Below, piece after piece: positions 1 through 58,086 of a stretch of 64,000 nt of DNA. The DNA comes from Escherichia coli (GTDB lineage Bacteria > Pseudomonadota > Gammaproteobacteria > Enterobacterales > Enterobacteriaceae). The stretch is from NCBI RefSeq assembly GCF_024502345.1, contig NZ_JALDNN010000001.1. One strand, given 5' to 3'. How positions within the stretch are numbered: position 1 is the stretch's first letter; every line of letters begins with the position of its first letter. The translations under genes were made by a program, and so were the position numbers. Below the pieces are notes generated by a model. The model searched no databases, had not been told where the DNA came from, and saw only the letters and a program-made list of their open reading frames with translations.

Positions 1-391
1 CTTCACCGAAGACCTTCAGCCCGGTGGAATCAATTACCAGGTGTGCGATTTCACCCCGGGTGGGCGTTTTGAAACTGACGTTAACCGACTTTGCCCGCCT
101 GCTGACACAGCTGTAATCCGGGCAGCGTAGCGGAACGTTCATCAGAGAAAAAATGGAATCAATAAAGCCCTGCGCAGCGCGCAGGGTCAGCCTGAATACG
201 CGTTTAATGACCAGCACAGTCGTGATGGCAAGGTCAGAATAGCGCTGAGGTCTGCCTCGTGAAGAAGGTGTTGCTGACTCATACCAGGCCTGAATAGCTT
301 CATTATCCAGCCAGAAAGTTATGGAGCCACGGTTGATGAGGGCTTTATTGTAGGTGGGCCAGTTGGTGATTTTGAACTTTTGCTTTGCCAC
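1..391 (-). CDS. IS903-type DDE transposase, N-terminal part (truncated by window edge)
   Basis: GTG start at 389-391 (minus). Hand translation VAKQKFKITNWPTYNKALINRGSITFWLD... matches my recall of the IS903 transposase. Absent from the ORF track because it is open at the window edge. Confidence 0.8.
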   Translation of the reverse strand, partial: MAKQKFKITNWPTYNKALINRGSITFWLDNEAIQAWYESATPSSRGRPQRYSDLAITTVLVIKRVFRLTLRAAQGFIDSIFSLMNVPLRCPDYSCVSRRAKSVNVSFKTPTRGEIAHLVIDSTGLKVFGE

Positions 392-468
392 GGAACGGTC
401 TGCGTTGTCGGGAAGATACGTGATCTGATCCTTCAACTCAGCAAAAGTTCGATTTATTCAACAAAGCC
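1..468 (-). mobile_element. IS903-like element (IS5 family), one end only; runs off the window
   Basis: Reverse complement of 451-468 reads GGCTTTGTTGAATAAATC, the IS903-type terminal inverted repeat. A transposase frame follows. Confidence 0.85.
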
Positions 469-799
469 GCCCTGAAGTAAGAAAATGGTAATAGACCCCA
501 CCGATTTTCGACTAAAAAACAACCCAATAAGGCATTTAAAATTAATGCTATTTAAATCAATAGATTAAAGTGATGATTTTGACAATATGCAGCCCAACTT
601 AAGGGTAAATCAACCTTTCAACAATCAAAACCACACTCCATTAATTTTTATTATTGTGACAATCATCACATTTTACACCTGCGGGTGCTTTGATTTTGTA
701 CATTCACAAAGCTCACCAACCCCAACGACTATGAACGTAAAAAACCTCTTTTTATGCACATATTATTTCCATGTAAATCAATTCATTATGGAGATAATC

Positions 800-1153
800 A
801 TGTTCAAGCTCACGACACCCACCAGTCTTCCCCTTCTCAAACTGTCCGCCTCCGCGCTGGAAGCCCTCAGCAATGAAATCCTTGGCCCCGTCGATGATAT
901 CGACCTGTTTACCGCCTTCTGGAACGAAACGGAAACCCTGCTCTGGCATCTCAACCATGATGACACGCTGCCCGAAGACCCGCTGCTGGCAGTTGCACTG
1001 GCTAACCCGGAATACGTCACCGCACTTGATGATGGCTGGTATCTGCTTCTCGGTATCGTCTGTGATAACGGACAGGGTATCTATCTGGTATTCCCGGACA
1101 CGACCATTATCACTCAACTCCAGAACCTGATTGAGGCGCTGAACCATGAGTAA
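800..1153 (+). CDS. hypothetical protein (117 aa)
   Basis: ORF 587-1153 trimmed to the ATG at 800, which is preceded by GGAGA. Its stop overlaps the next start (ATGAGTAA). Confidence 0.55.
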   Translation: MFKLTTPTSLPLLKLSASALEALSNEILGPVDDIDLFTAFWNETETLLWHLNHDDTLPEDPLLAVALANPEYVTALDDGWYLLLGIVCDNGQGIYLVFPDTTIITQLQNLIEALNHE

Positions 1154-1577
1154 GAAAAAAATCGCTACCGAAGCCGCCGTCATCGAAAGCTATACCGTGT
1201 TCTACAGGGGTGAAGCCGAGAAAATCAGTCCCCACAGTAAGGGTCTGCTGACGTATGAGTTGGGTAAAGAGGGTGAAACCGGAAGCCTTGCCCTGCGCTT
1301 AACCGCCAATGGCGAAGGGGGGCTGTTCTCCCGTGAATGGATAGCGCTTGATGCGATTCACGCCATTCTTGAACAACAGCAGGACAGTTTCCCGTCCCGG
1401 GTATTCCGCCCGCTGTTTGGTCAGGGCAGCACCAACAACGCCGGGTTTCTTGCCGCTGTACTGAGAAGCCCGGATATCTGTCTTATCGAGGCGGACAGCA
1501 GCAGACTCTTTATGCACCGCTGCTACGCCGACTGGCCGCATCGTATGACGCAGCTTGCCGCACTCAGCCAGGACTAA
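1146..1577 (+). CDS. hypothetical protein (143 aa)
   Basis: ORF-track ORF with an 8-nt overlap with the upstream gene, suggesting translational coupling. Confidence 0.6.
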   Translation: MSKKKIATEAAVIESYTVFYRGEAEKISPHSKGLLTYELGKEGETGSLALRLTANGEGGLFSREWIALDAIHAILEQQQDSFPSRVFRPLFGQGSTNNAGFLAAVLRSPDICLIEADSSRLFMHRCYADWPHRMTQLAALSQD

Positions 1578-1623
1578 TCCCCACTTTTTCTGTGTTCCAT
1601 ACCCCTTAAAAAGGAAATTCACT

Positions 1624-2052
1624 ATGTCATCACCCGCTATATTGCAGGGCGGCTATGTGCTGCCTCTCTCCCGGTCGTTCACCCAACTGCTTCTGGATAT
1701 CCTCGCGCAAAAACCGCCTCATCGTCACCCCATCACCGGATTAACCATTAACTTCCGTGACCCTGAATACTCACCGGAAAAGGGCGGCTGGCATCCGGTC
1801 GAAATACGCCTCATCCCTGCCGGAGAAGACTGGCAGCTCGATTACGTCACCGATTTTCACTATGCAGGACATCCATGGCCTGAGCTTGAAAAAGATGTCG
1901 ATGTGAGCTGGACGCAACAATACACGTGGCTTTCCCGTTGTGGCGATATCTCTCATGTCGACGCCCGTGAGTTCTGGTCGCTATGGGAAAGTAACTTTAT
2001 GGCTTACCACGATATGGGGGTTTTCACGGTCCGTACGTTGTGGGAAAGCTGA
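1624..2052 (+). CDS. hypothetical protein, possibly DUF2787-like
   Basis: ORF 1555-2052 trimmed to the ATG at 1624 after AAGGAA. The family assignment is from memory only. Confidence 0.5.
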   Translation: MSSPAILQGGYVLPLSRSFTQLLLDILAQKPPHRHPITGLTINFRDPEYSPEKGGWHPVEIRLIPAGEDWQLDYVTDFHYAGHPWPELEKDVDVSWTQQYTWLSRCGDISHVDAREFWSLWESNFMAYHDMGVFTVRTLWES

Positions 2053-2110
2053 GTGTTCACTACGTTTCCCCCGCATCCCCCCTCTCCCCCATAGTAAGGA
2101 ACTGAATGTT

Positions 2111-2575
2111 ATGTACCGGCTTCTGCTGCTTAACTTCGTGGATTCATTTATCGATAACTGCATTCTGTCCTGCGTCGATGAACCGGCTTACGGCGGTATC
2201 GTGCAGTGCGAACTGCTTTTTGGCCTTGCCGCACACAGCGGTATCTATGTGGGTAACGGCGATATTGTTCATCTTGATGGCGATGGAACCGTTATCAAAA
2301 GTAAGGCTAAAGGTTTTCTTGACCGGCTCGATGGCTGGAACTCCGCTATCTCGGTGTATACCGACTGTATGGATTTGACGCCTCAGGGTTGTGCGCGGGC
2401 CGCTGAACGGGCAAAGGCGGCAGTGGGTCAGCGCTATCCTTATAGCCTGCTCGACTTTAACTGCCACCGGTTTACTGCCCGCTGCGTTACCGGCGATTCG
2501 TGCCCTGATATCTGGCTTGCCAGACACCTCGATACATTTCAGAAAGGGGACCGATGGCGCGTATGGCAACGATGA
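2111..2575 (+). CDS. LRAT / NlpC-P60 (NC-domain) family putative thiol hydrolase or acyltransferase
   Basis: Motifs HSGIYVGNGDIVH and LLDFNCHRF match the His and NCxxF Cys signature of the LRAT/H-rev107 family. Confidence 0.6.
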   Translation: MYRLLLLNFVDSFIDNCILSCVDEPAYGGIVQCELLFGLAAHSGIYVGNGDIVHLDGDGTVIKSKAKGFLDRLDGWNSAISVYTDCMDLTPQGCARAAERAKAAVGQRYPYSLLDFNCHRFTARCVTGDSCPDIWLARHLDTFQKGDRWRVWQR

Positions 2576-2793
2576 AAGCCAGCCGTTGCAGGCAACGTGT
2601 CACCGGACAGGGAGAACGGCTTATCCGGCTGACCATGGTGCTGTTTTACGGTCAGACAATATCTGTTCGCTACATCATCCGGCAGTTTGACGTGTCTCCC
2701 CGCACAGCAAGACGGGACCTCGCTCAACTGGCCTTTGTGCTGGAATCCGCTGGCCCTCACCTCTGGCGACTGGCTCCCTCGCTGAAACCCTGA
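2554..2793 (+). CDS. small putative HTH protein (79 aa)
   Basis: Overlaps the upstream gene by 22 nt. The segment VSPRTARRDLAQL resembles a DeoR/YafY-type HTH recognition helix. Confidence 0.4.
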   Translation: MARMATMKASRCRQRVTGQGERLIRLTMVLFYGQTISVRYIIRQFDVSPRTARRDLAQLAFVLESAGPHLWRLAPSLKP

Positions 2794-2867
2794 CTTTTTT
2801 CTCTGCCGGACATCTCCTGACCACCCCGTATGGCAGGCTGTCTCCGCTTTTCAATCCATAAGGGAAC

Positions 2868-3254
2868 ATGATGAAAATTTCTAAACTGTTAACCGCCACA
2901 CTTCTGCTTTCAGCCTTCAGCCACAGCGCATTTGCCGACGAGCAGGCTGACGCTCAGATGATAACCAACTCGACCTTCTGTGCGATGTACTCCACCCGCC
3001 TGACCCAGACCAGTGACAGCGGCCTTCAGGTAAAAGGCGTCAATCTCAATGCCCGCATCAACGGACCGGTATTCAACAGGGTACTTCAGGTGATGAACAA
3101 AACCTATGGCAGAACCTGGCTCGAATCAAATGCCCGTAACGGCAGCATGACCGCCATGCAGCTTTCGCAGTCGGAGCTGCTTTATAACCCGGAATATGCC
3201 CGGCAGTGCGATGCCTTTGCGGATAAAGTGGAAAAGGAATGGCGCGGAAAGTAA
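2868..3254 (+). CDS. secreted hypothetical protein
   Basis: N-terminal signal peptide MMKISKLLTATLLLSAFSHSAFA/DE. Confidence 0.65.
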   Translation: MMKISKLLTATLLLSAFSHSAFADEQADAQMITNSTFCAMYSTRLTQTSDSGLQVKGVNLNARINGPVFNRVLQVMNKTYGRTWLESNARNGSMTAMQLSQSELLYNPEYARQCDAFADKVEKEWRGK

Positions 3255-3287
3255 TCCCGACGCGTTATACCTCCATCCGGTGAACAG

Positions 3288-3318
3288 AAACCTGCTTTCG
3301 GGCAGGTTTTTTTTACTT
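3288..3318 (+). terminator. rho-independent terminator
   Basis: AAACCTGC / GCAGGTTT stem followed by a T8 run, directly after the 2868-3254 gene. Confidence 0.75.
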
Positions 3319-3332
3319 TTTTATTTTTCAGG

Positions 3333-3349
3333 CGGACAAACCCTGTCCG
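3333..3349. promoter_or_regulatory. palindrome CGGACA-N5-TGTCCG (candidate WYL-regulator operator)
   Basis: Perfect 6-bp arms. Near-identical copy at 4189-4207 and a related copy at 47106-47133. Confidence 0.45.
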
Positions 3350-3396
3350 GGGGCTTCCTTAAACTGTCAGGTCCAATATCTGCAATGAGGTGAAAT

Positions 3397-4146
3397 ATGG
3401 CTACCTACCGACACGACCCTGATCTTGAATTTCTGCGCCACTGCCATCGTGACGATCTGGATTTACTGGTTTCTGTGCTTATCTGCGATCCGAAAGACGG
3501 ACTGGCACGCATCACGGAAACGCTGACCTATGATCCTCAGTATAAAAAACACAAGCCCAACCACCCGCGCTACTGGGATGCCATTGCCGCCGAGGTTCAG
3601 ACGTTTGGGGCGAACAGCTTTGCCACGCTGCTCCGCTGGGGTAAAGGGGTGCTGTACCGGGAAATTCTCACCGATGCCTGCGATAAAATGAAGGTGAACT
3701 ACAACAACAAATCCAGTGTTGAAACCATTGAAATGAATCTGCTGATGAAGATCCTGGAGAAAAGTCTTGAGAAGATGACGCCTGACCAGCTAAAGACCGT
3801 GGCGGAAGAATTGCAGACAGGCTACAGCAACCCCACGCCGGAGTTGCTGACCATGGCAATCCAGGCGGGGATAAAAACATCCGGGTTTGCGGCCTATCAG
3901 ATGGCACTTGTTGTCACAAATGGTGTGGCGAAAGCCCTGTTAGGCAGAGGGCTGACCGTTGCAGGAAATGCCATGCTGACGCGTACCATGGGCGCTTTTG
4001 CCGGTCCCGTGGGCTGGGTGCTCAGTTCTCTCTGGCTGCTGATTGATTTAGCCGGTCCCGCATACCGGGTGACGCTACCATCCTGCATTTTTATTGCCTA
4101 CATGCGCCAGAAGCATCTTTATTCACCTGAGAATACTGACGTTTAG
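3397..4146 (+). CDS. YaaW-like protein (DUF3944 N-terminus plus UPF0174-like region), hydrophobic C-terminus
   Basis: N-terminus YRHDPDLEFLRHCHRDDLDLLVSVL...DGLARITETLT resembles the DUF3944/YaaW pattern (from memory). The C-terminus has hydrophobic segments. Confidence 0.5.
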   Translation: MATYRHDPDLEFLRHCHRDDLDLLVSVLICDPKDGLARITETLTYDPQYKKHKPNHPRYWDAIAAEVQTFGANSFATLLRWGKGVLYREILTDACDKMKVNYNNKSSVETIEMNLLMKILEKSLEKMTPDQLKTVAEELQTGYSNPTPELLTMAIQAGIKTSGFAAYQMALVVTNGVAKALLGRGLTVAGNAMLTRTMGAFAGPVGWVLSSLWLLIDLAGPAYRVTLPSCIFIAYMRQKHLYSPENTDV

Positions 4147-4188
4147 CACTTACATTTAAGGTATTCAGACTTTAAAAAACTTCAGAGG

Positions 4189-4207
4189 GCGGACAAATCC
4201 TGTCCGC
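4189..4207. promoter_or_regulatory. palindrome GCGGACA-N5-TGTCCGC (candidate operator upstream of WYL regulator gene)
   Basis: Perfect 7-bp arms, 42 nt upstream of the ATG at 4249. Confidence 0.45.
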
Positions 4208-4248
4208 TACTGCTGGCATCATTTCCCGGCTAAATTCGGAAATGATGT

Positions 4249-4962
4249 ATGACGCTGATAACACAAGAAAACGAACATGACAGACTGGCAACCCGCCTTT
4301 CCATCATCCTGAGCCGTTTGTTTCAGGGTGAAAAGCTGCATATCGGGACGCTGGCAGAAGAATTTGGAGTGACGACGCGAACGCTGCGACGGGATTTCAA
4401 CGTCCGTCTGACCTACCTTGATATTGAACAGAGCAACGGCGTGTATCAGCTTGCCTCACATTACTTTCGTCGCCGCACGGAACGGGATATGAAGATACTG
4501 GCGAGGTTGCTGCATCTTGACCGTCTGTTACCCGCGATGGATGCCAAACTACTGAGCCTGATGCTTGACGGGGAACGTCCCTCGCCATACAGGATTATGC
4601 TACCGGAGCCGCGCCAGAAACCCACCCTTTTCGGTGATTTCAGCAGACTGACGCTCGCCATACTTAACCAGACCCAGGTGCGTATCAGAACCGACGAAAA
4701 CGTCAGCCATACCGTTCATCCCTACCGTCTGCTTTGCAGCCATGCGGAGTGGTTTCTTGCCGGATGTACGTCATCGGGCGTGTTCGTTATTTCCCTGTCC
4801 CGAATCAGGCTGGTTGAGGTATTACCGGATACAACGTTTGAGATCGATAACACACTCATTTCGCTGATTGAACAGTCTGACTTTATGGAAGCCTTACCCC
4901 ACATGAACATTATTCATCAGATAATGCATTACGGGAGTAAACAGACGAATAATCGTAATTAA
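4249..4962 (+). CDS. HTH plus WYL-domain transcriptional regulator (YfjR/YafY-like)
   Basis: N-terminus DRLATRLSIILSRLFQGEKLHIGTLAEEFGVTTRTLRRDF is a typical YafY-type HTH. Clear paralogue of the 47188-47916 product. Confidence 0.75.
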   Translation: MTLITQENEHDRLATRLSIILSRLFQGEKLHIGTLAEEFGVTTRTLRRDFNVRLTYLDIEQSNGVYQLASHYFRRRTERDMKILARLLHLDRLLPAMDAKLLSLMLDGERPSPYRIMLPEPRQKPTLFGDFSRLTLAILNQTQVRIRTDENVSHTVHPYRLLCSHAEWFLAGCTSSGVFVISLSRIRLVEVLPDTTFEIDNTLISLIEQSDFMEALPHMNIIHQIMHYGSKQTNNRN

Positions 4963-5002
4963 AATCACAACATATTATTAGTGATGATTAAATCACATTA
5001 AC

Positions 5003-5332
5003 ATGATAAGTGAGAAAGTTATGATTATCGATAAAGAATACGCACTTGTAAATGCAACAGCAAGACTTAACACTGACCTGAGGGATTATGAATATGAAAT
5101 AAACAACGCCGCCATCATAACATTTGGCAATGACCTCATTGAGGTAATCGTATATCAGTTCAGCTTTGTCATCAGCATCAGGGCAGAGGGTGAAAAAATA
5201 AAGCACGGCCTACTTGTTAACTTCGGTAAAAATATAGCAAGACAGGTTTCATCACTTTGTGCATCCGCAATGCGAGTCTACCCGAATGAAAAACACAAAC
5301 CGAGCCGTCAGCTTTTCCATTGCATAAATTAG
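5003..5332 (+). CDS. hypothetical protein (109 aa), AT-rich
   Basis: ORF-track ORF only, lying between the WYL regulator and the DUF262/DUF1524 gene. Confidence 0.3.
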   Translation: MISEKVMIIDKEYALVNATARLNTDLRDYEYEINNAAIITFGNDLIEVIVYQFSFVISIRAEGEKIKHGLLVNFGKNIARQVSSLCASAMRVYPNEKHKPSRQLFHCIN

Positions 5333-5393
5333 TTTGTGCAAAGACTGTACTACCGACACGCAATAAATTAAAATAGGCCAGCTAATATAACAT

Positions 5394-7271
5394 ATGAGGT
5401 TTATGATGGCTGGCCAGTATGAAAAAGCAATAACGATAAAACAAGCGATAGATTCAATTAATTTACGCCACTATCTTCTGCCTGCAATTCAGAGGAAGTT
5501 CGTCTGGAGCAGCAGTCAAATATGTTTGCTGTTTGATTCCATCATGCGAGACTACCCGATAAACTCTTTCATGATGTGGGATATCCGTAGTGCCAGTATT
5601 AAAAATGATTACAAATTCTATGAATTCCTGAAAGAATACTGTCAGCGATTTAATGAAGAAAACCCCTGCGTAGCAACAAATGCTGGATTTCATGATTTCA
5701 AGGCGGTGATTGATGGTCAGCAGCGTCTCACATCATTATATATTGGATTGTGTGGAACGTATGCGTATAAACAGCCCCGGGTGTGGTGGCCTTCGGCACA
5801 GGATGATCGCATCCTGCCGCCCAGAAAGCTTTACGTCGATTTAACAGCGCCACTTAATTCAGACGATGAGCTCATGATGAAGTATAACTTCAGGTTCCTG
5901 ACCGACAAGCAATACGCTGATTCACTTACAGACAACAAGCATCACTGGTTCTGCCTGCACGAAATATTCAAATACGAGCAACATGATTCGCCTGATGATA
6001 TTTTATTTAACGTTGTCGTACCAGAACTCGAAAAAAGAGGACTCATTTCCAGTGAATTTTCCAGAAAAACATTACTGAGACTTTATACAAAAATAAGAAC
6101 TGAGAACATCATCCACTACTTCAATGAGAGTAGTCAGGATATTGACCATGTGCTGGATGTTTTCATACGCACGAACAGCGGGGGGACAAAACTTGAGTTC
6201 TCCGACTTACTGATGTCAATAGCGGTAGCGCACTGGCAGGGTGATTTCAGAAGAGAACTGGATGAACTGACAAAAAACATTTATCAGAATAATGAAATGG
6301 GGTTTTATATTGAAAGAGACTGGTTCTTAAAAACCAGCCTGATGCTTATTGACTCTGACGTCCGGTTCAAAGTAAAAAACTTCACTTCAGAGGAGGTCGG
6401 TAAGATACAACAACAATGGTCTGAAATAAAATCCTGCATCAAGGAGACTTTTATTCTTATCAGGCGATTCGGCATCAATCCACAGTCTTTGATATCTAAA
6501 AATGCAGTCATTCCTGTGGTCTACTGGCTTTACAAAAAGCAAACCAGTGGACATCCATTATATACAACGATTAACCTCCTGAATAAAAACCACAATGAAC
6601 GCTCAGTAATTAGCCAGTGGTTTTACATGGTACTTCTGAAAGGGATCTTTGGAAGCCAGGCAGATGCGCTACTCACGAGTATCAGAGATGTAATGAAAAA
6701 TAGTCTTTCAGATATTCACTTTCCTCTTGAAAAGATTATTGACAGATATAAAGGCTCGAATAAAGACCTCAGATTTGACGACGAATACATCGAAAGCCTT
6801 CTCAATATCAGATATGGCGAAGGTCGTTGCCGCGCACTATTGCATCTTCTGTTCCCTGAAATGAATCCGACCGAGGTGTTTCATATTGATCACCTTCACC
6901 CAAGAAATCACTTCTCAAAGAAATATCTTGAAAAATTAGATTATGTTGCGAACTCACCAGAGAACCTCAGCTTTTATGAAAACCCGGAACACTGGGACAC
7001 CATACCTAATCTTCATTTACTGAATCATTCTCAGAATATAAGTAAACAGGATACTTCCCTGAAACAATGGCTATCTCAGCCATCAAACAACTATTCGCCA
7101 TCAATGCTGTTAGTTTCAGATGAAAATATTGAGTTCAGTCGCTTCCCGGAATTCTACAATGAACGAAGAAACGCCCTGAAGCAAAGACTACTGAATCGGG
7201 TATTTCTTACAACAAAAATAGATTCATCACCATCCACAATCGATACGGATGAAGAAATTCTCACCGACTGA
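5394..7271 (+). CDS. GmrSD-like DUF262/DUF1524 protein (putative Type IV modification-dependent nuclease)
   Basis: The N-terminal DUF262 hallmark DGQQRLTS is present. The C-terminus has a His-Me finger-like HIDHLHPRNHF...NLHLLNHSQNISK, as in DUF1524. Confidence 0.75.
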   Translation: MRFMMAGQYEKAITIKQAIDSINLRHYLLPAIQRKFVWSSSQICLLFDSIMRDYPINSFMMWDIRSASIKNDYKFYEFLKEYCQRFNEENPCVATNAGFHDFKAVIDGQQRLTSLYIGLCGTYAYKQPRVWWPSAQDDRILPPRKLYVDLTAPLNSDDELMMKYNFRFLTDKQYADSLTDNKHHWFCLHEIFKYEQHDSPDDILFNVVVPELEKRGLISSEFSRKTLLRLYTKIRTENIIHYFNESSQDIDHVLDVFIRTNSGGTKLEFSDLLMSIAVAHWQGDFRRELDELTKNIYQNNEMGFYIERDWFLKTSLMLIDSDVRFKVKNFTSEEVGKIQQQWSEIKSCIKETFILIRRFGINPQSLISKNAVIPVVYWLYKKQTSGHPLYTTINLLNKNHNERSVISQWFYMVLLKGIFGSQADALLTSIRDVMKNSLSDIHFPLEKIIDRYKGSNKDLRFDDEYIESLLNIRYGEGRCRALLHLLFPEMNPTEVFHIDHLHPRNHFSKKYLEKLDYVANSPENLSFYENPEHWDTIPNLHLLNHSQNISKQDTSLKQWLSQPSNNYSPSMLLVSDENIEFSRFPEFYNERRNALKQRLLNRVFLTTKIDSSPSTIDTDEEILTD

Positions 7272-7474
7272 ACGTTCAGCCCCGATAGTATTGGGGCTTC
7301 AGTATTTATCATCAGCGCAACGTTTCTACTGGCCTGGCTGAAAGAGCATTGGCTACACAACCGGGCAAACGAACTCTCAGTGCAACGTATGACATACAAA
7401 GCCTGTCATCAATATGAAATTGCGATAAAATCGGGCCAATAACAGTACTTAAGAATCATACAACAGGATACAAA

Positions 7475-9031
7475 ATGACAAGCCTTCAGCAGCGTGCAGA
7501 GCTACACCGTCAAATCTGGGCCATTGCCAATGATGTCAGAGGCTCCGTAGATGGGTGGGATTTTAAACAGTATGTACTCGGTGCACTTTTCTACCGCTTC
7601 ATCAGTGAGAATTTTTCCAGCTACATGGAAGCAGGGGATGAGAGCATACATTATGCAGCACTTGATGACAGCATCATTACCGATGACATCAAAGACGATG
7701 CCATCAGGACTAAAGGCTATTTCATCTACCCGAGCCAGCTGTTCTGCAACGTTGCCGCTAAAGCGAACACCAACGACAGGCTGAATGCTGATTTAAACAG
7801 TATCTTCGTCGCTATAGAAAGCTCTGCCTACGGCTACCCGTCAGAGGCCGACATCAAAGGCCTGTTCGCCGATTTCGATACGACCAGCAATCGACTGGGG
7901 AACACAGTTAAAGACAAAAACAGCCGTCTTGCCGCGGTTCTGAAAGGGGTTGAAGGGTTAAAACTTGGTGACTTCAACGAACATCAGATTGACCTGTTCG
8001 GTGATGCCTATGAGTTCCTGATTTCTAACTATGCCGCAAATGCCGGTAAGTCAGGCGGTGAGTTCTTTACACCGCAGCACGTCTCCAAGCTGATTGCACA
8101 ACTGGCTATGCACGGGCAGACCAGCGTTAACAAAATCTACGACCCGGCAGCGGGTTCCGGCTCACTGTTGTTGCAGGCGAAAAAACAGTTTGATAACCAC
8201 ATCATCGAAGAAGGCTTTTTCGGTCAGGAAATCAACCATACGACCTATAACCTGGCGCGTATGAACATGTTTTTGCACAATATCAACTACGACAAGTTTG
8301 ATATCAAGCTGGGTAATACACTGACTGAGCCGCACTTCAGAGATGAAAAACCGTTTGACGCCATCGTATCTAATCCACCGTATTCGGTGAAATGGATTGG
8401 CAGCGATGACCCGACGCTGATTAACGATGAACGTTTTGCCCCGGCTGGCGTTCTGGCCCCCAAATCCAAAGCTGACTTTGCGTTTGTATTACATGCACTG
8501 AACTATCTTTCTGCCAAAGGTCGTGCTGCGATTGTCTGCTTCCCGGGTATTTTTTACCGTGGCGGCGCAGAGCAGAAAATCCGTCAATATCTGGTCGACA
8601 ATAACTATGTCGAAACCGTGATTTCACTGGCACCGAACCTGTTCTTTGGCACCACCATTGCCGTCAATATTCTGGTGCTGTCTAAACATAAAACGGATAC
8701 CAAAGTTCAGTTTATTGATGCCAGCGAATTATTCAAAAAAGAGACTAACAACAATATCCTGACCGATGCCCATATCGAACAGATTATGCAGGTATTTGCC
8801 AGCAAGGAAGATGTTGCTCATCTGGCGAAATCTGTCGCGTTTGAGACCGTTGTCGCTAATGACTATAACCTGTCGGTGAGCTGCTATGTAGAAGCGAAAG
8901 ATAACCGCGAAATTATCAATATTGCTGAGCTAAATGCAGAGCTTAAAACTACGGTTAGCAAAATCGACCAGTTGCGTAAAGATATTGATGCGATTGTGGC
9001 TGAAATTGAAGGCTGCGAGGTGCAGAAATGA
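7475..9031 (+). CDS. hsdM: Type I (family IC) restriction-modification methyltransferase subunit
   Basis: Near-identical, by recall, to EcoR124I HsdM ([15 protein letters not shown]...). Motifs [10 protein letters not shown] and NPPY are present. Confidence 0.95.
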
Positions 9032-10200
9032 GCGAGTTGAGTTATCTGGAAAAATTGCTGGATGGGGTTGAGGTTGAGTGGAAATCATTGGGAGATGTTG
9101 TAAATTTTCAGCGCGGAAGGCGGCTCGTAAAATCTCAGTTAGAAACCAGAGGTAAATATGCGGTTTACCAAAACAGCATGACACCACTCGGTTACTATCA
9201 TGAGTATAATGTCGCAGCTCAATCTTCGTTCATTATCTGTGCGGGTGCAGCCGGTGAAATTGGTTATAGCGAAAATGAATTTTGGGCTGCCGACGATGTT
9301 CATTTCGCAATCACACCAGAATATATAAATGACAGGTTTTTGTTTCATTTTTTGTTGACGCAAAAGAATAAAATTTCAGGACAAGTACGCCGTGCCAGTA
9401 TTCCGCGTCTCTCAAAGTCAGTAATTGAAAAACTTGAATTCCCCATCCCCTGCCCGGATAATCCGGAAAAGTCCCTTGCCATCCAGTCTGAAATCGTTCG
9501 GATTCTGGATAAATTTACTGCACTTACCGCTGAGCTTACCGCTGAGCTTAACATGCGTAAAAAACAGTACAACTACTATCGCGACCAGTTGCTGAGTTTT
9601 GATGAGGGTGAGGTTGAGTGGAAGGCTTTGGAGGAAGTCTCAACTTTTGCTAATGGAAAGGGGCATGAAAAAGACATATCAGAAGACGGTAAATATATTG
9701 TTGTAAACTCTAAGTTTATATCTACCAATGGCGAAGTCGCCAAGTTATCAAACAAACAGCTATGCCCTCTTTTTAAAGACGATATTCTTTTGGTTATGAG
9801 TGACCTGCCCAATGGCAAAGCACTTTCAAAAACATTTATTGTTGATGAAGATCATAAATACACTTTAAACCAACGTATTGGTGGAATTACAGTAAAAAAC
9901 AGTAATGAATTACTCCCTAAGTTTTTGCACTATTTTTTAAATAGAACCCCGCAATTGCTGAAACATGACAATGGTGTTGATCAAACAAATTTGCGTAAAG
10001 GTCAAATACTTGAAGTAAAAATACCAATAATTTCACTCATCAAACAAGTTCAGATCGTTGAAACTCTTGATAAATTCGATACTTACACTAAGTCGATTTC
10101 AGAAGGCCTCCCGCGCGAAATCGAGCTGCGCCATAAACAGTACGAGTACTATCGTGATTTATTGTTCAGCTTCCCGAGACCAGAAACCGCCAGCAACTGA
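9028..10200 (+). CDS. hsdS: Type IC specificity subunit
   Basis: 4-nt overlap with hsdM. Conserved IC regions are present ([34 protein letters not shown]... and [22 protein letters not shown]), with two variable TRDs. Confidence 0.95.
9523..9550 (+). repeat. 12-bp tandem repeat CTTACCGCTGAG x2 (plus a 4-nt partial) encoding TAEL-TAEL in the hsdS central spacer
   Basis: Read directly: 9523-9534 and 9535-9546 are identical. Confidence 0.95.
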
Positions 10201-10316
10201 CGGACCATTGATACCGGCAGGGTTTGTTCTCACCCGCCCGGTATCAGGCTTTAAGAATGCCGGAAGATGCTTCTGATACCCTTCCGGAATTTGCCAGATG
10301 ACGCACAGGATGCACC

Positions 10317-13300
10317 ATGACACAACAGATACACACCATTGCTGAATCCAATAACTTTATCGTCCTTGATAAATACACCAAAGTTCTGGAGAACGGCGAC
10401 AGCTACCAGAGCGAATCGGATCTTGAGCGGGAACTGATTCAGGACCTTCTGAATCAGGGCTATGAATTTATATCCGTTAAGTCACCGACAGCGATGCTGG
10501 CGAATGCACGGGACCAGCTTCAGCATCTTAATGGTGTGGTGTTTAACGAAAGTGAATGGCGGCGCTTCGCAGAGCAGTATCTGGACAGCCCCAGTGACAG
10601 CAGCCTGGACAAAACTCGTAAAATCCATATCGACTATATCTGTGATTTCACGTTTGATGACGGTCGTCTGGAAAACATCTATCTGATAGATAAAAAGAAC
10701 CTGCTGCGCAATAAGGTGCAGGTCATTCAGCAGTTTGAACAGACCGGCTCACACGCTAACCGTTATGACGTCACCATTCTGGTTAACGGCCTGCCACTGG
10801 TGCAAATCGAACTCAAAAAGCGCGGCGTGGCTATTCGTGAAGCCTTTAACCAGATACACCGTTACAGCAAGGAAAGCTTTAACAGCGACAACTCCCTGTT
10901 TAAATACCTGCAACTGTTTGTGATATCTAACGGAACCGATACCCGGTACTTTGCCAGTACCACTAAGCGGGATAAAAACAGCTTTGATTTCACCATGAAC
11001 TGGGCGAAGTCGGATAACACTCTGATTAAGGACCTGAAGGACTTTACCGCCACCTTCTTCCAGAAACATACCCTGCTGAATGTTCTGTTTAATTACAGCG
11101 TGTTTGACAGCAGCCAGACTCTGCTCGTCATGCGCCCCTATCAGATTGCCGCCACTGAGCGAATCCTCTGGAAAATTAACAGCTCATTTAAAGCGAAGAA
11201 TTGGTCAAAACCCGAAAGCGGCGGGTTTATCTGGCATACCACCGGGTCAGGCAAAACCCTGACCAGTTTTAAGGCTGCACGACTGGCAACCGAACTGGAC
11301 TTTATAGACAAAGTCTTCTTCGTGGTCGACAGAAAAGACCTTGATTACCAGACAATGAAGGAGTATCAGCGCTTTTCTCCGGACAGCGTCAACGGTTCGG
11401 ATAATACAGCAGGCCTCAGAAGAAACCTGGATAAGGACGATAACAAAATCATCGTCACAACCATTCAGAAACTCAATAACCTGATGAAAGCCGAAGCTGA
11501 CCTGCCCGTCTATCAGCAGCAGGTAGTGTTTATCTTTGATGAGTGTCACCGCAGCCAGTTTGGTGAGGCCCAGAAAAACCTCAAAAAGAAATTCAGACGC
11601 TTTTATCAGTTTGGTTTTACCGGTACGCCTATTTTCCCGGAAAATGCACTGGGGGCAGAAACCACAACCAGCGTGTTCGGGCGTGAGTTACATTCTTACG
11701 TCATTACTGATGCGATTCGTGATGAAAAAGTACTGAAGTTTAAGGTGGACTATAACGATGTCCGCCCACAGTTTAAGTCTCTTGAAACGGAAACAGACGA
11801 GAAAAAACTCAGCGCGGCTGAAAACCAACAGGCATTTTTGCACCCCCTGCGTATCCAGGAAATAACGCAATACATTCTCAATAACTTCCGGCAGAAAACA
11901 CACCGAACCTTCCCGGGAGCTAAGGGCTTTAACGCCATGTTAGCAGTTAGCAGCGTGGACGCGGCGAAAGCTTATTACACGACGTTTAAAATGCTACAGG
12001 AAGAAGCAGAGAAGAAATCTGGCAGCTATAAATGCCTTCGGGTGGCAACCATCTTCTCCTTTGCTGCAAATGAAGAGCAAAGCGCCATTGGTGATATTAC
12101 TGACGAAAGCTTTGATACCAGTGCAATGAACAGCAGCGCGAAGGAATTCCTGGATTCAGCCATTGATGACTATAACAATCACTTTAAAACCAATTTCAGC
12201 ACCGACAGTAACGGTTTCCAGAACTACTACCGCAATTTAGCTCAACGAGTGAAAAATCAGGATATTGACCTTCTCATCGTGGTGGGAATGTTCTTGACTG
12301 GCTTTGATGCCCCGACGCTTAACACTCTTTTCGTTGACAAAAACCTCCGTTATCACGGCCTGATGCAGGCATTTTCCCGCACAAACCGTATCTATGATGC
12401 CACCAAAACCTTCGGCAATATCGTGACTTTCAGGGATCTGGAGCGTCCGACCATTGATGCCATCACACTATTTGGCGACAAAAACACCAAGAATGTGGTG
12501 CTGGAAAAAAGCTACGAAGAGTACATGCAGGGCTTTACCGATGCGGCAACCGGTGAGGCTAAACGAGGTTTTATGGCTGTTGTTTCGGAGCTGGAGCAGC
12601 GCTTCCCTGACCCTGCCAGTATCGACAGTGAAAAAGAGAAAAAAGCCTTCGTCAAACTGTTTGGTGAATATCTGCGGGCAGAAAACATCCTGCAAAACTA
12701 TGATGAATTTGCCACGCTGAAAGCCCTGCAGAAGGTTGATATTAGTGACCCGGAAGCGGTAGAAACCTTTAAAGCAGAGCACTATGTGGATGATGAAAAA
12801 TTTGCTGAATTACAAACCATTCGTCTCCCGGCAGAACGTAAAGTTCAGGACTATCGCTCAGCATACAATGATATCCGGGACTGGCAGCGACGCGAAAAAG
12901 CATCAAACGACAGGGATAAATCAACCACAGACTGGGATGACGTGGTGTTTGAAATTGACCTGCTGAAGTCGCAGGAAATTAACCTGGATTACATCCTTGG
13001 TCTGATTTTCGACCACAATCGTCAGAAAAAAGGTAAAGAAGCCCTGACTGAAGAGGTCAGACGCTTAATCCGCTCAAGTCTGGGCAACCGTGCCAAAGAA
13101 GGTCTGATTGTTGACTTTATTCAGCAAACTAACCTTGATGACATGCCGGACAAGGCCAGTATCATTGATGCATTCTTTACCTATGCTCAGCGTGAACAGC
13201 AACGGGAAGCAGAGGCGTTGATTAAGGAAGAAAACCTCAATGAAGAGGCTGCAAGGCGCTATATCCGCACATCACTAAAACGGGAGTATGCCACCGAAAA

Positions 13301-13433
13301 TGGGACGGAGCTAAATGAGACGCTACCAAAGCTCAGTCCGCTGAATCCTCAGTACAAAACGAAAAAGCAGACTGTATTCCAGAAAATTGGGGCATTTATC
13401 GAAAAATTTAAAGGGGTTGGAGGACACCTCTAG
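10317..13433 (+). CDS. hsdR: Type IC restriction endonuclease/helicase subunit
   Basis: 1038 aa with helicase motifs TGSGKT and DECHRSQ. Its length and sequence fit an EcoR124I-type HsdR. Confidence 0.95.
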
Positions 13434-13654
13434 ATGTCAGATAAAAGAACAATGCGCTACCGCAATTTATGGGTAAGATTGTATCTTTTAACCTGCATCA
13501 GACCTGTTATGATCGATGAGGCGCTGGTTAATGTTAATGCTAACTGGATGAGTTTTAATCGCTGATTCAGACAATTAGCGTCCAGAACTCACAGAAACCA
13601 GTGCTTGATTTTGGATGGTAAAGTGCTGAACGGACGTATCACAGGAGAATGCTT

Positions 13655-13993
13655 ATGAGCGTAACTATAAAAGACGATCGACTCCGTACCATCGCTACCT
13701 TTGACGGTAAAACCCTGAAAGACGACCGGCTCAGGACCATCGCAACGTTTGACGGTAAAACCCTGAAAGACGACCGGCTCAGAACCATCTCAACTTTTGA
13801 CGGTAAAACCCTGAAAGACGACCGACTCCGCACCATCGCTACCTTTGATGGCAAGACCCTGAAAGACGATCGACTCCGCACCATCGCAACATTTGATGGT
13901 AAAACACTTAAAGACGATCGACTCAGAACCATCGCGACAGTTAATGGTAATGTTAGTATTGTTGTTTTGGCGTTTGCTGCTCGGCTATTTTAG
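13655..13993 (+). CDS. repeat protein: six 16-aa KDDRLRTIATFDGKTL units plus a hydrophobic tail
   Basis: The ATG at 13655 follows AGGAG with a 7-nt spacer. The repeats are conserved at protein level despite synonymous DNA differences. Confidence 0.6.
   Translation: MSVTIKDDRLRTIATFDGKTLKDDRLRTIATFDGKTLKDDRLRTISTFDGKTLKDDRLRTIATFDGKTLKDDRLRTIATFDGKTLKDDRLRTIATVNGNVSIVVLAFAARLF
13670..13957 (+). repeat. 6 x 48-bp in-frame tandem repeat
   Basis: Read directly. The units differ mostly at third codon positions. Confidence 0.95.
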
Positions 13994-14270
13994 GGCTAAG
14001 AGCCTATCTCAACAGAGATTAATACTTTACCCAAAAGATATAATATCAGTATCTAAAAGCCTGCACCGTCTGATTTTTAGTCATTGAATCGCGAGAACGG
14101 GAGATAATTTCTCTTCTATGGGTATAGGCTCATAATGGTAGGATTCTGGTAGCTTCGAAACGCCGTATTTAAGCAATACTTAAGTCATGAAGAACCAAAC
14201 TTAAACATTTTTCTCAAGGTAAACCAGTAAAAAACTGTTAGTGCTGATGGATCGTTTGGGCTCTTTTAAA

Positions 14271-14319
14271 GGGATTGAAAATCCCCGTGTCCTTGGTTCG
14301 ATTCCGAGTCCGGGCACCA
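14271..14319 (+). tRNA. 3' fragment (49 nt) of tRNA-Phe(GAA): anticodon stem-loop to CCA. The 5' half is absent (att remnant, not a functional gene).
   Basis: GGGATTGAAAATCCCCGTGTCCTTGGTTCGATTCCGAGTCCGGGCACCA equals the pheV/pheU 3' part. The upstream 27 nt do not match GCCCGGATAGCTCAGTCGGTAGAGCAG. Confidence 0.9.
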
Positions 14320-14330
14320 AATTCATATCA

Positions 14331-14357
14331 ACGGACCTCCACGGAGGTCCGTTTTTC
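14331..14357 (+). terminator. rho-independent terminator after the tRNA fragment
   Basis: ACGGACCTCC..GGAGGTCCGT stem followed by TTTTCGTTT. Confidence 0.7.
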
Positions 14358-14516
14358 GTTTCAGAACGCCACAATTTAAGCGTTCTGCCTCCAAATCAAT
14401 TCTACCGAACTCAACCAGATTCCCCCCACATCAACCCCATTGTGTGGGTATAATTGCGGGTATACCCCAGTTCGACAGAATTTGTACCCTCTTTAACGCA
14501 TTCAGAAGGCTGAACT

Positions 14517-15782
14517 ATGGCACTGACTGACGCAAAAATCCGGGCTGCAAAGCCCACTGACAAGGCTTATAAACTCACTGACGGGGCCGGCATGTTCCTG
14601 CTGGTTCATCCTAATGGTTCCCGTTACTGGCGTCTCCGTTATCGTATTCTGGGTAAGGAGAAAACCCTGGCACTTGGTGTGTATCCGGAAGTTTCTCTCT
14701 CCGAAGCTCGTACAAAACGGGATGAGGCCCGAAAACTGATTTCGGAGGGGGTTGACCCTTGCGAACAGAAAAGAGCTAAAAAAGTAGTCCCTGATTTACA
14801 ACTCTCTTTTGAACATATTGCACGACGCTGGCATGCCAGTAATAAACAATGGGCACAATCACACAGCGATAAAGTACTCAAAAGCCTCGAGACACACGTT
14901 TTCCCCTTTATCGGCAACCGGGATATCACAACACTCAGTACCCCGGACCTGCTTATCCCTGTTCGTGCTGCAGAAGCTAAACAAATTTATGAAATCGCCA
15001 GTCGTCTGCAGCAAAGAATATCTGCTGTAATGCGTTATGCCGTACAGTCTGGCATCATCAGATATAACCCGGCTCTGGATATGGCTGGTGCATTGACCAC
15101 GGTAAAACGCCAGCATCGCCCTGCTCTGGATCTTTCACGCCTGCCTGAACTTCTGTCGCGTATTGACGGTTATAAAGGCCAGCCTGTCACCCGACTGGCA
15201 GTTATGCTGAATTTACTGGTTTTTATTCGTTCCAGTGAACTCAGATATGCCCGCTGGTCTGAAATTGATATTGACAATGCCATGTGGACTATTCCAGCCG
15301 AACGCGAACCTCTGCCAGGCGTAAAATTTTCATACCGGGGCTCCAAGATGCGAACACCACATCTTGTGCCACTCAGCCAACAGGCTGTAGCCATACTGGC
15401 AGAACTTCAGACATGGGCAGGTGAAAATGGTCTGATCTTTACGGGAGCACATGACCCACGTAAACCAATCAGTGAAAACACCGTAAATAAAGCCCTGAGG
15501 GTTATGGGGTATGACACAACCCAGGATGTCTGTGGTCATGGATTCCGGGCGATGGCATGTAGTGCATTAATAGAATCAGGTTTGTGGTCCCGCGATGCTG
15601 TGGAACGCCAGATGAGCCATCAGGAGCGTAATGGTGTACGTGCTGCGTATATCCATAAAGCCGAACATCTGGAAGAACGTCGACTTATGCTACAGTGGTG
15701 GGCCGATTTTCTGGATGCAAACAGAGAAAGATTTATCAGTCCATTTGAATATGCAAAGATTAATAATCCATTAAAACAATAA
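14517..15782 (+). CDS. int: P4-type tyrosine integrase (tRNA-Phe island integrase)
   Basis: N-terminus MALTDAKIRAAKPTDKAYKLTDGAGMFLLVHPNGSRYWRLRY is typical. The C-terminal catalytic region contains HGFR...Y. Confidence 0.9.
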   Translation: MALTDAKIRAAKPTDKAYKLTDGAGMFLLVHPNGSRYWRLRYRILGKEKTLALGVYPEVSLSEARTKRDEARKLISEGVDPCEQKRAKKVVPDLQLSFEHIARRWHASNKQWAQSHSDKVLKSLETHVFPFIGNRDITTLSTPDLLIPVRAAEAKQIYEIASRLQQRISAVMRYAVQSGIIRYNPALDMAGALTTVKRQHRPALDLSRLPELLSRIDGYKGQPVTRLAVMLNLLVFIRSSELRYARWSEIDIDNAMWTIPAEREPLPGVKFSYRGSKMRTPHLVPLSQQAVAILAELQTWAGENGLIFTGAHDPRKPISENTVNKALRVMGYDTTQDVCGHGFRAMACSALIESGLWSRDAVERQMSHQERNGVRAAYIHKAEHLEERRLMLQWWADFLDANRERFISPFEYAKINNPLKQ

Positions 15783-15826
15783 TCCTCCCGGGAAAATGCC
15801 CGGGAACCACCCGGGGATTATTTTTT
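15783..15826 (+). terminator. probable terminator after int
   Basis: CCCGGG-rich hairpin (AATCCTCCCGGG...CCCGGGGATT) followed by T6. Confidence 0.55.
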
Positions 15827-15950
15827 GTTAAAAAAGGCAAAACGATATTAACTGATGTATTAAATGTTTACCGGATTGCTCCCTGCAGGTGGATTATCAG
15901 AATCCGCAGTTATTCGTTATTTATATATATTCAATAAAAAGAAACATCAT

Positions 15951-15985
15951 AAAAAATCCCGCACCCACAGGGTGATGCGGGATAA
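15951..15985 (-). terminator. rho-independent terminator of the minus-strand transferase gene
   Basis: The minus strand reads ATCCCGCA...TGCGGGAT followed by TTTTTT. Confidence 0.6.
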
Positions 15986-16103
15986 CTGACGTAAGGAATG
16001 CTGCCGGGATTTGGTGGTCCCTTGTGCTGATATGAATACAGGTTCTATTCTATACAGAATCCTTTTCAGTACAAGAGACTGTATTACAGTTTGCCATATA
16101 TGA

Positions 16104-47105: not shown

Positions 47106-47133
47106 GGGGGATGGACATAACGTGTCCCTCCCC
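47106..47133. promoter_or_regulatory. extended palindrome around GGACA-N5-TGTCC (candidate operator upstream of the second WYL regulator gene)
   Basis: GGGGATGGACATAACGTGTCCCTCCCC, with the core at 47113-47127. Confidence 0.4.
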
Positions 47134-47187: not shown

Positions 47188-47916
47188 ATGCAACGACCCG
47201 ATGAAGAGGCCCGCTACGACCGGCTGGCCGTCAGATTGTCGGTCATTATCAGCCGGTTAATGGCCGGAGAAACGCTGACCCTTCAGACACTGTCCGGTGA
47301 GTTTGGTGTATCGATACGCACCCTGCGTCGTGACTTACATCAACGGCTGGTCCACCTCGACATTATCGGGGAGAACGGCACGTATCGGCTCAGTGAGAGC
47401 GCCACGCGTGATCACTCTCCGGGGGCCGTTTCCTTTGCCCGCAGTACCGGTATCGCACGCATTATCCCGTCGCAGAACCGGCAACTGATGCACCTGCTGA
47501 TGAATGAAACGGGCACCTCACCCTGCTTTATCTGGCACGACTTACCGCCAGCATGGACACAGGCTGACAGTTTTCATCGTCTGGCCGAAGCCATTTGTCA
47601 TCACCGGGTGGTCAGTCTGCTGGTCGGCGGTGTCCGTCACGATGAGCAGGAGCCTTACCGCCTGATTTACCGGCATCAGCACTGGTATCTGGTCGTCTGT
47701 TGCCGGGGGAGCCTTCGGGTGTTCCGGCTGGAAGACATTATCTCGGCCTCACTCTCAGAGCAAACCTTCCGTCGCCGGAGCGAAATCAGTTCGCTCATTA
47801 CTGAAGAGGGATTTATCAGCGCACTGCCCCACTTTCGCTTTATCAGTGATGTCATTCACACCTTCAGGGAACAACACCCTGAACATCCATCCAGACCCAA
47901 AGGAGTCAAATCGTGA
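47188..47916 (+). CDS. yfjR: HTH plus WYL-domain regulator, YfjR-like
   Basis: YDRLAVRLSVIISRLMAGETLTLQTLSGEFGVSIRTLRRDL. Resembles CP4-57 YfjR by recall. Confidence 0.7.
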   Translation: MQRPDEEARYDRLAVRLSVIISRLMAGETLTLQTLSGEFGVSIRTLRRDLHQRLVHLDIIGENGTYRLSESATRDHSPGAVSFARSTGIARIIPSQNRQLMHLLMNETGTSPCFIWHDLPPAWTQADSFHRLAEAICHHRVVSLLVGGVRHDEQEPYRLIYRHQHWYLVVCCRGSLRVFRLEDIISASLSEQTFRRRSEISSLITEEGFISALPHFRFISDVIHTFREQHPEHPSRPKGVKS

Positions 47917-53414: not shown

Positions 53415-53435
53415 TATAATTATCCTTATTAACCG

Positions 53436-55142: not shown

Positions 55143-55196
55143 TTCTGTGCTCTTATCTTGTGTTCGTTACTTAGCGTTATTATTCTACAGCAATCG

Positions 55197-57982: not shown

Positions 57983-58086
57983 TTGACCTCCCATGCAACA
58001 GAAGATCGAATTTTGCGGGCCCCAGAAACGAGTAACCCCTCACAGGGCGCTGATCTGACGGGTAGCGGGAGGGGTGTTGTTGCAGT

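Follow-up and report, generated by a model that had tools for sequence, protein, structure and literature searches.

Pairing of a Type IV enzyme with Type I restriction is already a known arrangement. In the pEFER island of Escherichia fergusonii, a BrxU-family enzyme is embedded in BREX, a methylation-based system that targets unmodified DNA, with the helix-turn-helix (HTH)-WYL gene brxR upstream, and complementary protection against modified and unmodified phages has been described (PMC8565348, PMC9122601). In the VPI-2 island of Vibrio cholerae, the two-protein Type IV enzyme TgvAB is adjacent to a Type I system in one orientation (PMC11411939), and Hma together with HEC-05 and HEC-06 enzymes embedded in Type I loci have also been described (bioRxiv 10.1101/2024.01.29.577857). 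Complementary roles of the Type IV enzyme and the methylation-based system have been argued for BREX/BrxU, for TgvAB/Type I and for embedded HEC-05. BrxU itself belongs to the HEC-05 family and cuts DNA with 5-methylcytosine, 5-hydroxymethylcytosine (5hmC) and glucosyl-5hmC. The analysis presented here concerns positions 4249-13433 of a 64,000-nt stretch of an Escherichia coli genome (contig NZ_JALDNN010000001.1; the whole stretch is referred to as the window), where an HTH-WYL transcription regulator, a small open reading frame (ORF), a BrxU-like enzyme and a Type IC restriction-modification (R-M) system are encoded (Table 1), and the genes that this regulator may control.

The locus resembles the pEFER island in that a BrxU-family enzyme stands beside a methylation-based system targeting unmodified DNA, with an HTH-WYL gene upstream. 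It differs from pEFER in that the partner is a Type IC R-M system instead of BREX, and in that the nuclease, 35% identical to BrxU, is encoded upstream of the partner system and not embedded in it. The regulator also differs from BrxR, being a YfjR-family protein that is shorter, has no WCX domain and shows no sequence match to BrxR, and the predicted regulator sites are located before a jukA homologue and the regulator's own gene, not before the restriction genes. With TgvAB the locus shares the adjacent Type IV and Type I genes, the single orientation, the genomic island and the complementary roles proposed for the two systems, and its nuclease is itself a member of HEC-05. Unlike TgvAB, the enzyme is a single protein; unlike the embedded Type I cases, its gene precedes hsdM and is not placed between the hsd genes; and unlike in either case, the four genes are also carried as a group by plasmids and a phage-plasmid.

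It is rather probable, in our judgement, that the region consists of two separable parts, a mobile restriction cassette in the cargo arm of an integrative island and a backbone module in which the WYL regulator would regulate its own gene and control the jukA homologue. This homologue, which is absent from an earlier account made from the sequence alone (the sequence-only reading), is encoded on the same strand just before the WYL gene, at a distance of 102 nt, and its product scores 241 bits with the PADLOC JukA model (residues 3-241). In the 'jumbo phage killer' system JukA acts as the sensor; among defence-associated genes near jukA, those for WYL domains and R-M components are reported to be the commonest, and certain JukA homologues work without JukB (bioRxiv 10.1101/2022.09.17.508391). 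The DUF3944 and Cbp3-like domains and the WYL and R-M neighbours are shared with Juk; the JukA variants assayed in that study are accompanied by Xre-type regulators, unlike the WYL regulator here. No PADLOC match to JukB is found among the neighbours scanned.

In a scan of one genome per species, relatives of the WYL protein are encoded at 21 loci, and about eight lineages among these differ by more than 35% in this protein. The jukA gene adjoins the WYL gene in all relatives of the island and also in five distant loci (L034-L038; two Yersinia, Rouxiella, Ewingella and Buttiauxella izardii), whose WYL proteins are ~40% identical to the one in the window. In all five, a jukA homologue (58-64% identical) is directly upstream of the WYL gene, and the small ORF, brxU and hsd are present in none of them. 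The backbone of one of the Yersinia loci (L034) is CP4-57-like, with DUF932, RadC, antirestriction and DUF4942 genes. Where WYL relatives occur without jukA, they occupy the place of YfjR in CP4-57-like islands (Hafnia, Serratia, bacterium B14, K-12 and positions 47188-47916 of the window). As judged from this synteny, the WYL regulator belongs to the backbone of two types of island, and jukA is the only gene that recurs as its partner.

The candidate operator of the regulator was first seen when the jukA-WYL spacers of divergent islands were aligned, where the palindrome GGACA-N5-TGTCC is invariant amid diverged sequence. Three exact copies occur in the window, compared with ~0.06 expected from base odds, and with one mismatch allowed there are five sites, compared with 1.8 in shuffled sequences. 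Each exact copy is followed by a start codon at a distance of 58-75 nt, which in two cases is that of a YfjR-like gene. At all three island positions (sites 1 to 3 in Table 1) the arms are conserved across lineages and the N5 spacer is variable (E. coli, Edwardsiella, L009 and Hafnia L019), and site 1 is found at the same place in these four and in other loci. Most close relatives in the genome scan have all three sites. In the distant jukA-WYL loci the palindrome is upstream of jukA only, which fits a two-gene operon there; where jukA is missing, it precedes the WYL gene by 75-95 nt, and K-12 yfjR has two upstream copies, the distal one perfect and the proximal one degenerate. The palindrome heads the unit that contains the regulator (jukA and/or WYL) in 19 of the 21 genome loci, and only three one-mismatch matches are found elsewhere in ~290 kb.

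Every functional-looking site has a -10-like hexamer exactly 11 nt downstream (TAAACT, TACACT or TAAGGT at jukA, CATCAT or CATAAT at the regulator gene and CAGGCT at orf128, the 128-aa ORF), and chance matches of the palindrome do not have this gap. The fixed distance places the palindrome at approximately -38 to -24, in the position of the -35 element. This geometry recalls the WYL activators of the PafBC/DriD type at promoters without a -35 element; PafBC uses a -26 motif at such promoters. For yfjR, no canonical promoter was predicted in published work, and a review table from the laboratory that developed genomic SELEX (gSELEX) gives the yfjR operon as the regulation target of YfjR. Site 3 is described here as a candidate autoregulatory operator. 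A wider proposal, which is tentative and to which we give somewhat less than an even chance, is that YfjR-family WYL regulators, K-12 YfjR included, recognize GGACA-N5-TGTCC in place of the -35 element, and that one branch of the family controls a JukA sensor.

The assignment of the regulator to the YfjR type, already made in the sequence-only reading, is in agreement with an identity of 36% to K-12 YfjR over the full length (E 1e-38) and with the sizes of the two proteins (237 and 233 aa); PADLOC WYL models also match. In its AlphaFold2 (AF2) model a winged HTH (~11-70), an ill-defined linker, a WYL barrel (~129-196) and a single long C-terminal helix are seen, the ~40 residues after the WYL domain being mostly this helix. 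The best Foldseek matches among Protein Data Bank (PDB) entries are BrxR, PafBC, CapW and DriD, with E-values of 4e-7 to 1e-4 (BrxR 7QFZ, E 3.9e-7), identities of 14-22% and TM-scores of ~0.3. When all PDB chains, BrxR and CapW entries included, were searched with phmmer, no match at E <= 1 was obtained except SpoIIID; the BrxR family is defined by a BLASTP E-value below 1e-5 to pEFER BrxR (PMC9122601). A WCX domain has no Pfam match in the regulator, and a distant homologue (P0022) has one. None of the WYL protein, the small ORF product and the BrxU-like protein is assigned to a family by NCBIfam. Thus, the earlier comparison with the BrxR/CapW type holds for the HTH-WYL superfamily and not for the family: judged by sequence, the protein groups with YfjR, and its mode of action may be like that of other superfamily members. 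With K-12 YfjR, encoded in the cryptic prophage CP4-57, it shares the HTH-WYL architecture, the size, the upstream palindrome and the place in an island backbone; unlike here, there is no jukA beside yfjR, and the type of island differs, with a P4-type integrase and yfjP and yfjQ as neighbours. The second YfjR-like gene of the window (47188-47916, 242 aa) lies in the CP4-57-like backbone of a second, tandem island, and the identities of its product are 35% with the first copy, 43% with K-12 YfjR and 63% with a Hafnia homologue.

The 79-aa HTH protein encoded upstream of orf128, also present in related islands, is 33% identical to the N-terminus of the regulator over 43 aa and could compete for the same operator. 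As the main binder of the palindrome it was rejected, since the palindrome precedes YfjR-like genes where no separate copy of this protein is found.

The second part of the region, the brxU-like/Type IC block, is by its distribution a self-contained cassette common to chromosomal islands, plasmids and a phage-plasmid. Positions 5198-9099 and 10066-13424 of the window are ~92-93% identical to an IncFIB plasmid of Klebsiella variicola, which carries a shortened small ORF, the DUF262 gene and hsdMSR, and has no WYL gene, no jukA and no palindrome. Positions 5198-7474, comprising the brxU-like gene and both of its spacers, are 93.8% identical in the 110.9-kb record of Klebsiella phage vB_KpnS_p4727, and in certain E. 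coli the DUF262 gene is found alone with 210 nt of upstream sequence between IS3 fragments. The left part of the island is conserved (int, DUF927, int, two small ORFs, DUF2787, LRAT, the 79-aa HTH gene, orf128, jukA, WYL and the small ORF), and the stretch from the small ORF to the attachment (att) site is variable. BrxU-like and Type IC cargo is present in the window and in many Enterobacteriaceae. In Edwardsiella ictaluri, the order is WYL, small ORF and hsdMSR, with Type IC alone and without brxU; in Edwardsiella tarda, genes for a TM2 protein and a 243-aa protein lie between the WYL gene and the small ORF, followed by Type IC. Other cargo consists of DUF6708 and an insertion sequence (IS) in L009, of a block on the minus strand, AAA-like protein included, in Hafnia L019 and of other genes in Kluyvera. 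In Buttiauxella warmboldiae (L024, 9242-12926), genes for CapP/CapH regulators are divergent from an E1/E2-like system, from which it follows that cargo can bring its own regulators. The small ORF is present without jukA or WYL in a Pantoea island.

Among 5426 complete E. coli genomes, 108 have the stretch from orf128 to the small ORF (window 2800-5400) and 114 have the brxU-like gene; the 10-kb stretch is present to at least 80% in 39. Alternative cargo was considered as the cause of the gap between these counts and rejected: the cases inspected are IS insertions or truncations. In the best-matching genomes, the coverage of the 10-kb stretch is lowered by hsdS divergence.

The expression signals within the cassette are consistent with its separability. 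The promoter-like site before hsdM contains the 13-nt block TGCGATAAAATCG, which is also found before hsdM in E. ictaluri, without an intervening brxU-like gene, and the whole 203-nt spacer between the brxU-like gene and hsdM is ~94-95% identical on Klebsiella plasmids. A terminator-like hairpin directly follows the brxU-like stop codon, and the small ORF of Edwardsiella has a strong hairpin after it. The promoter block and these hairpins suggest that the cassette carries its own expression signals: hsdMS and hsdR are most likely expressed from their own promoters, and probably the brxU-like gene as well. With up to two mismatches allowed, the palindrome is found in none of the regions 4963-5393, 7272-7474 and 10201-10316, that is, upstream of the small ORF, the brxU-like gene, hsdM and hsdR. 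Direct control of the restriction cassette by the WYL regulator is unlikely on these grounds.

It is proposed that a dimer of the WYL protein would bind GGACA-N5-TGTCC, which would stand in for the -35 element at the orf128, jukA and WYL promoters. In this way the protein, as a repressor or as an activator, would regulate its own gene, set the level of a JukA-type phage sensor and also act on orf128. A ligand of the WYL domain is probably the signal; it may be single-stranded DNA, by analogy with CapW, DriD and PafBC. In the cassette, the DUF262 NTPase of the BrxU-like enzyme would sense DNA with modified cytosine and the His-Me domain would cut it, and HsdM2S would methylate adenine in a bipartite site, with HsdR translocating and cutting unmethylated DNA. 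A phage evading Type I restriction by cytosine modification would then become a substrate of the BrxU-like enzyme. The adenine methylation by Hsd would fall outside the cytosine modifications that BrxU reportedly cuts. The two systems would be compatible in one cell and would complement each other against phages.

Several points weigh against the two-part reading, and they are given here together with the alternatives that they favour. The evidence is sequence, and the operator, expression and phage roles are predicted from it; many of the 21 loci are closely related, so that their counts overstate the independent support, and AF2 models the regulator with only moderate confidence (pLDDT 69). 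It would be possible that the regulator gates the whole downstream cluster in the manner of BrxR/CapW, as the sequence-only reading had suggested, by read-through or through unrecognized sites. We consider this unlikely, and it keeps what probability it has mainly from the absence of a terminator in the interval that leads from the WYL stop codon to the first codon of the brxU-like gene. In this interval no intrinsic terminator was found, and read-through could couple the two genes; the WYL stop codon is only 58 nt from the small ORF, and every gene from jukA to the beta-flower gene (Table 1) is in one orientation. Terminator-like sites are more frequent than in shuffled sequences (19 compared with a mean of 11.9), and on the plus strand the convincing ones are only at 3286-3311 and 14330-14353, leaving none between 3311 and 14330. 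The promoter assignments, in turn, rest on conservation and not on consensus strength, since a generic sigma-70 scan gives 15 sites, below the shuffled mean of 18.5, and has no weight alone.

Published HTH-WYL regulators do control downstream defence islands, the reported K-12 target includes genes downstream of yfjR, and the defence cargo is always downstream of the WYL gene in this island family; however, at deep divergence the neighbour of the WYL gene is jukA and no restriction gene, and the cassette occurs on plasmids and a phage-plasmid without the regulator. The Hafnia cargo is on the opposite strand and the Buttiauxella cargo has its own CapH/CapP. A gating regulator is also difficult to reconcile with the absence of the palindrome before the cassette genes, with the promoter block that hsdM keeps and with the hairpins after the brxU-like gene and, in Edwardsiella, after the small ORF. 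It is thus the jukA homologue, not the brxU-like/Type IC cluster, that emerges as the partner of the WYL gene.

A further alternative is that the palindromes are intergenic stem-loops (mRNA stabilizers, attenuators or insulators) and not operators, the target of the regulator being elsewhere. The palindrome could indeed be an RNA or DNA hairpin: at site 3 the hairpin is stable, helix 1 is paired in 100% of the alignment cells and one flanking pair changes from C-G to T-A on both sides, and the jukA-WYL spacer (4180-4262) folds better than shuffled sequences (z -4.6). Moreover, no binding sites of YfjR were found by ChIP-exo in K-12. On the other hand, the region upstream of jukA folds no better than shuffled sequences (z +0.5), and the mismatch of site 1 breaks the stem in every lineage, with 9 of the 10 motif bases kept. 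The core sequence itself recurs in non-homologous spacers and in unrelated islands with YfjR-like genes, and the constant distance of 11 nt to the -10-like hexamer suits a promoter element. For these reasons the stem-loop explanation is considered improbable. That the regulator instead serves island housekeeping (excision, replication or transfer, through the integrases or DUF927) and not defence is very doubtful, although YfjR-type genes are in the backbones of two island types and the WYL gene is present whatever the cargo, since in no locus is the palindrome upstream of the integrase or DUF927 genes, where one-mismatch matches are within coding sequence, and the sites that are found precede orf128, jukA and the regulator gene.

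The jukA-WYL spacer contains a second hairpin, at 4216-4248, in which pairing is seen in 87% of the alignment cells and compensatory changes at two pairs (10 sequences). It would cover the ribosome-binding region of the WYL gene. Its 5' arm overlaps the proposed -10 hexamer, from which it follows that the hairpin would form only in read-through transcripts from jukA. A terminator function of the jukA-WYL hairpin was rejected, as no T-run follows it. In window positions 1-16000, no Rfam family is found at gathering thresholds.

Table 1. Features of the region and their positions in the window
Feature	Position	Strand	Remarks
79-aa HTH-only DeoR-like protein	2554-2793	+	Pfam HTH_DeoR, E 5.9e-6; island backbone
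Palindrome site 1, GGACATCTCCTGACC (one mismatch)	2808-2822		60 nt before the orf128 ATG
orf128, 128-aa ORF with N-terminal signal peptide	2868-3254	+	Conserved in related islands
Terminator-like hairpin	3286-3311	+	Strong; 11 pairs followed by TTTACTTTTT, with a T-run; ends the orf128 transcription unit
Palindrome site 2, GGACAAACCCTGTCC	3334-3348		63 nt before the jukA ATG; TAAACT 11 nt on
JukA/YaaW homologue	3397-4146	+	DUF3944 and Cbp3-like domain (Pfam DUF3944, Ubiq_cyt_C_chap)
Palindrome site 3, GGACAAATCCTGTCC	4191-4205		58 nt before the WYL ATG; CATCAT 11 nt on
Second hairpin	4216-4248	+	Inverted repeat ending just before the WYL start codon
YfjR-family HTH-WYL transcription regulator	4249-4962	+	237 aa; Pfam HTH_DeoR and WYL
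AT-rich element ACAACATATTATTAGTGATGATTAAATCAC	4967-4996		ATCAC/GTGAT repeats; conserved; upstream of the small ORF
Small ORF, conserved ~103-aa protein	5021-5332 (ORF opens at 5003, 109 aa)	+	Border of backbone and cargo
BrxU-family (PADLOC HEC-05) GmrSD-like Type IV enzyme	5394-7271	+	625 aa; DUF262 and His-Me nuclease
Hairpin, terminator-like, weak T tail	7278-7298	+	Directly after the brxU-like stop; -13.4 kcal/mol, z -2.6
hsdM promoter-like site, CTGTCA-17-TAAAAT	7403-7433	+	Contains conserved TGCGATAAAATCG
hsdM, Type IC	7475-9031	+	TIGR00497, 645 bits; EcoR124II M, 1133 bits
hsdS, Type IC	9028-10200	+	Two Methylase_S stretches (target-recognition domains); EcoR124II S, 251 bits
hsdR, Type IC	10317-13433	+	EcoR124_C domain and other HsdR domains
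114-aa 5-fold beta-flower protein	13649-13993	+	Pfam Bflower_2; variable slot between hsdR and att
23-nt exact copy of the tRNA-Phe 3' end (right att repeat)	14297-14319	+	Separates two tandem islands
Fourth palindrome site (exact)	47113-47127		75 nt before the second YfjR-like gene

The gene content of the region is largely as described in the sequence-only reading. Five functional genes on the plus strand had been counted; the coordinates, the strand and the intactness are confirmed, and the number of ORFs within 4249-13433, all uninterrupted in the ORF list, is six. The co-oriented stack extends beyond these limits, to the left with the jukA homologue and orf128 and to the right with the beta-flower gene and the att repeat. 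The juxtaposition of a nuclease for modified DNA and a system for unmodified DNA agrees with the gene identities. For the product of orf128, no match is found in Pfam, PADLOC or NCBIfam.

The recognition of the nuclease as a DUF262/DUF1524 protein with a DGQQRLTS motif and a His-Me finger is borne out. The PADLOC HEC-05 model matches with 767 bits over residues 4-604, the BrxU structure 7P9K with E 3.5e-99 over residues 9-600 and 35% identity over the full length, and Pfam GmrSD_N with 114 bits, with VIDGQQRLTS aligned to DGQQR of BrxU. The His-Me motif, (D/E)H..P, N, N, is present, FHIDHLHP and NLHLLNHSQN corresponding to FHVDHIYP and NLQLLEGTIN of BrxU; a Pfam scan of the C-terminal half gives no family at E <= 0.001, and the His-Me domain is assigned from the BrxU alignment alone. 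An inverted repeat, GGCCAGC...GCTGGCC, at 5376-5415 has the brxU-like start codons between its arms (RNA fold z -3.5) and could have an effect on translation initiation.

All three subunits of the R-M system match EcoR124, in agreement with its earlier description as Type IC. EcoR124I methylates adenine in a bipartite site and cuts unmethylated DNA after translocation. The HsdR protein has the same length as EcoR124I HsdR (1038 aa) and is near identical to it by score (2W00, 2121 bits over residues 1-1037 of 1038), and the Pfam EcoR124_C domain is matched with 247 bits. The order M-S-R is also that of EcoR124I and EcoR124II, with a 4-nt overlap of hsdM and hsdS and a 116-nt gap before hsdR. 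Two TAEL repeats are present in the central conserved region of HsdS; such tandem repeats, a feature of EcoR124I and EcoR124II HsdS, are a Type IC hallmark and set the spacer length. Unlike in EcoR124, the system is encoded on a chromosomal island and not on a conjugative plasmid, and the target-recognition domains of HsdS are diverged (251 bits), so that the recognition sequence is probably unlike that of EcoR124.

The small ORF, noted before as an AT-rich ORF of 109 aa, has 38% GC and encodes a conserved protein, with ATG 5021 as the likely start (103 aa), matching the RefSeq annotation. It lies inside 4963-5393, a region that had been called intergenic. Its product is 47-56% identical to the proteins that Edwardsiella and other relatives encode at this place, and an invariant KIKHG.LVNFGKNI core is common to these. 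Homologues form 72 clusters across Enterobacterales. The AF2 model (pLDDT 67) gives nothing better than E 0.026 against PDB folds; a weak resemblance to the ferredoxin-like fold of the IS200/IS605 TnpA transposase was not interpreted, as no HUH motif is found in the translation. In E. tarda, the AT-rich element upstream has remained beside the small ORF and is away from the WYL gene, and it adjoins an apparent remnant of the 3' end of an E. ictaluri-type WYL gene (L006, ~12470-12560). A recurrent recombination breakpoint is seen at ~5190-5198, inside the small ORF, and homology to the Klebsiella plasmid cassette and to the solitary E. coli brxU-like gene begins at this point.

The region is the right-hand part of a tRNA-Phe integrative island, followed in tandem by a second island. 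The att repeat is followed by a strong terminator (14330-14353) and the gene of a P4-type integrase (14517-15782), and in E. coli genomes the same island is found at a tRNA-Phe gene. In other islands the slot of the beta-flower gene encodes a 388-aa protein. Further along the window, a second defence block on the minus strand (50676-61115) comprises Type III res/mod, AbiU-like and AbiD-like genes and a DrmD-like SNF2 helicase gene. A gene for a 712-aa AAA_13 ATPase (30167-32305, minus strand; PADLOC PDC-S06, 987 bits) is surrounded by metal-efflux genes, IS elements and a group II intron.

The brxU-like/Type IC locus is one more case of GmrSD/BrxU enzymes encoded beside methylation-based systems on mobile islands, and for the restriction pairing itself this is of little consequence beyond cataloguing. 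The regulatory hypothesis is corrected, in that the regions 4963-5393 and 7272-7474 become the least likely targets of the regulator. The modestly new lead is the candidate operator of the YfjR family and its link to jukA. If true, it would provide a binding site and targets for the orphan K-12 regulator YfjR, as a first predicted operator and regulon, and Juk-type immunity would be inducible, a new instance of WYL regulation acting on a defence sensor.

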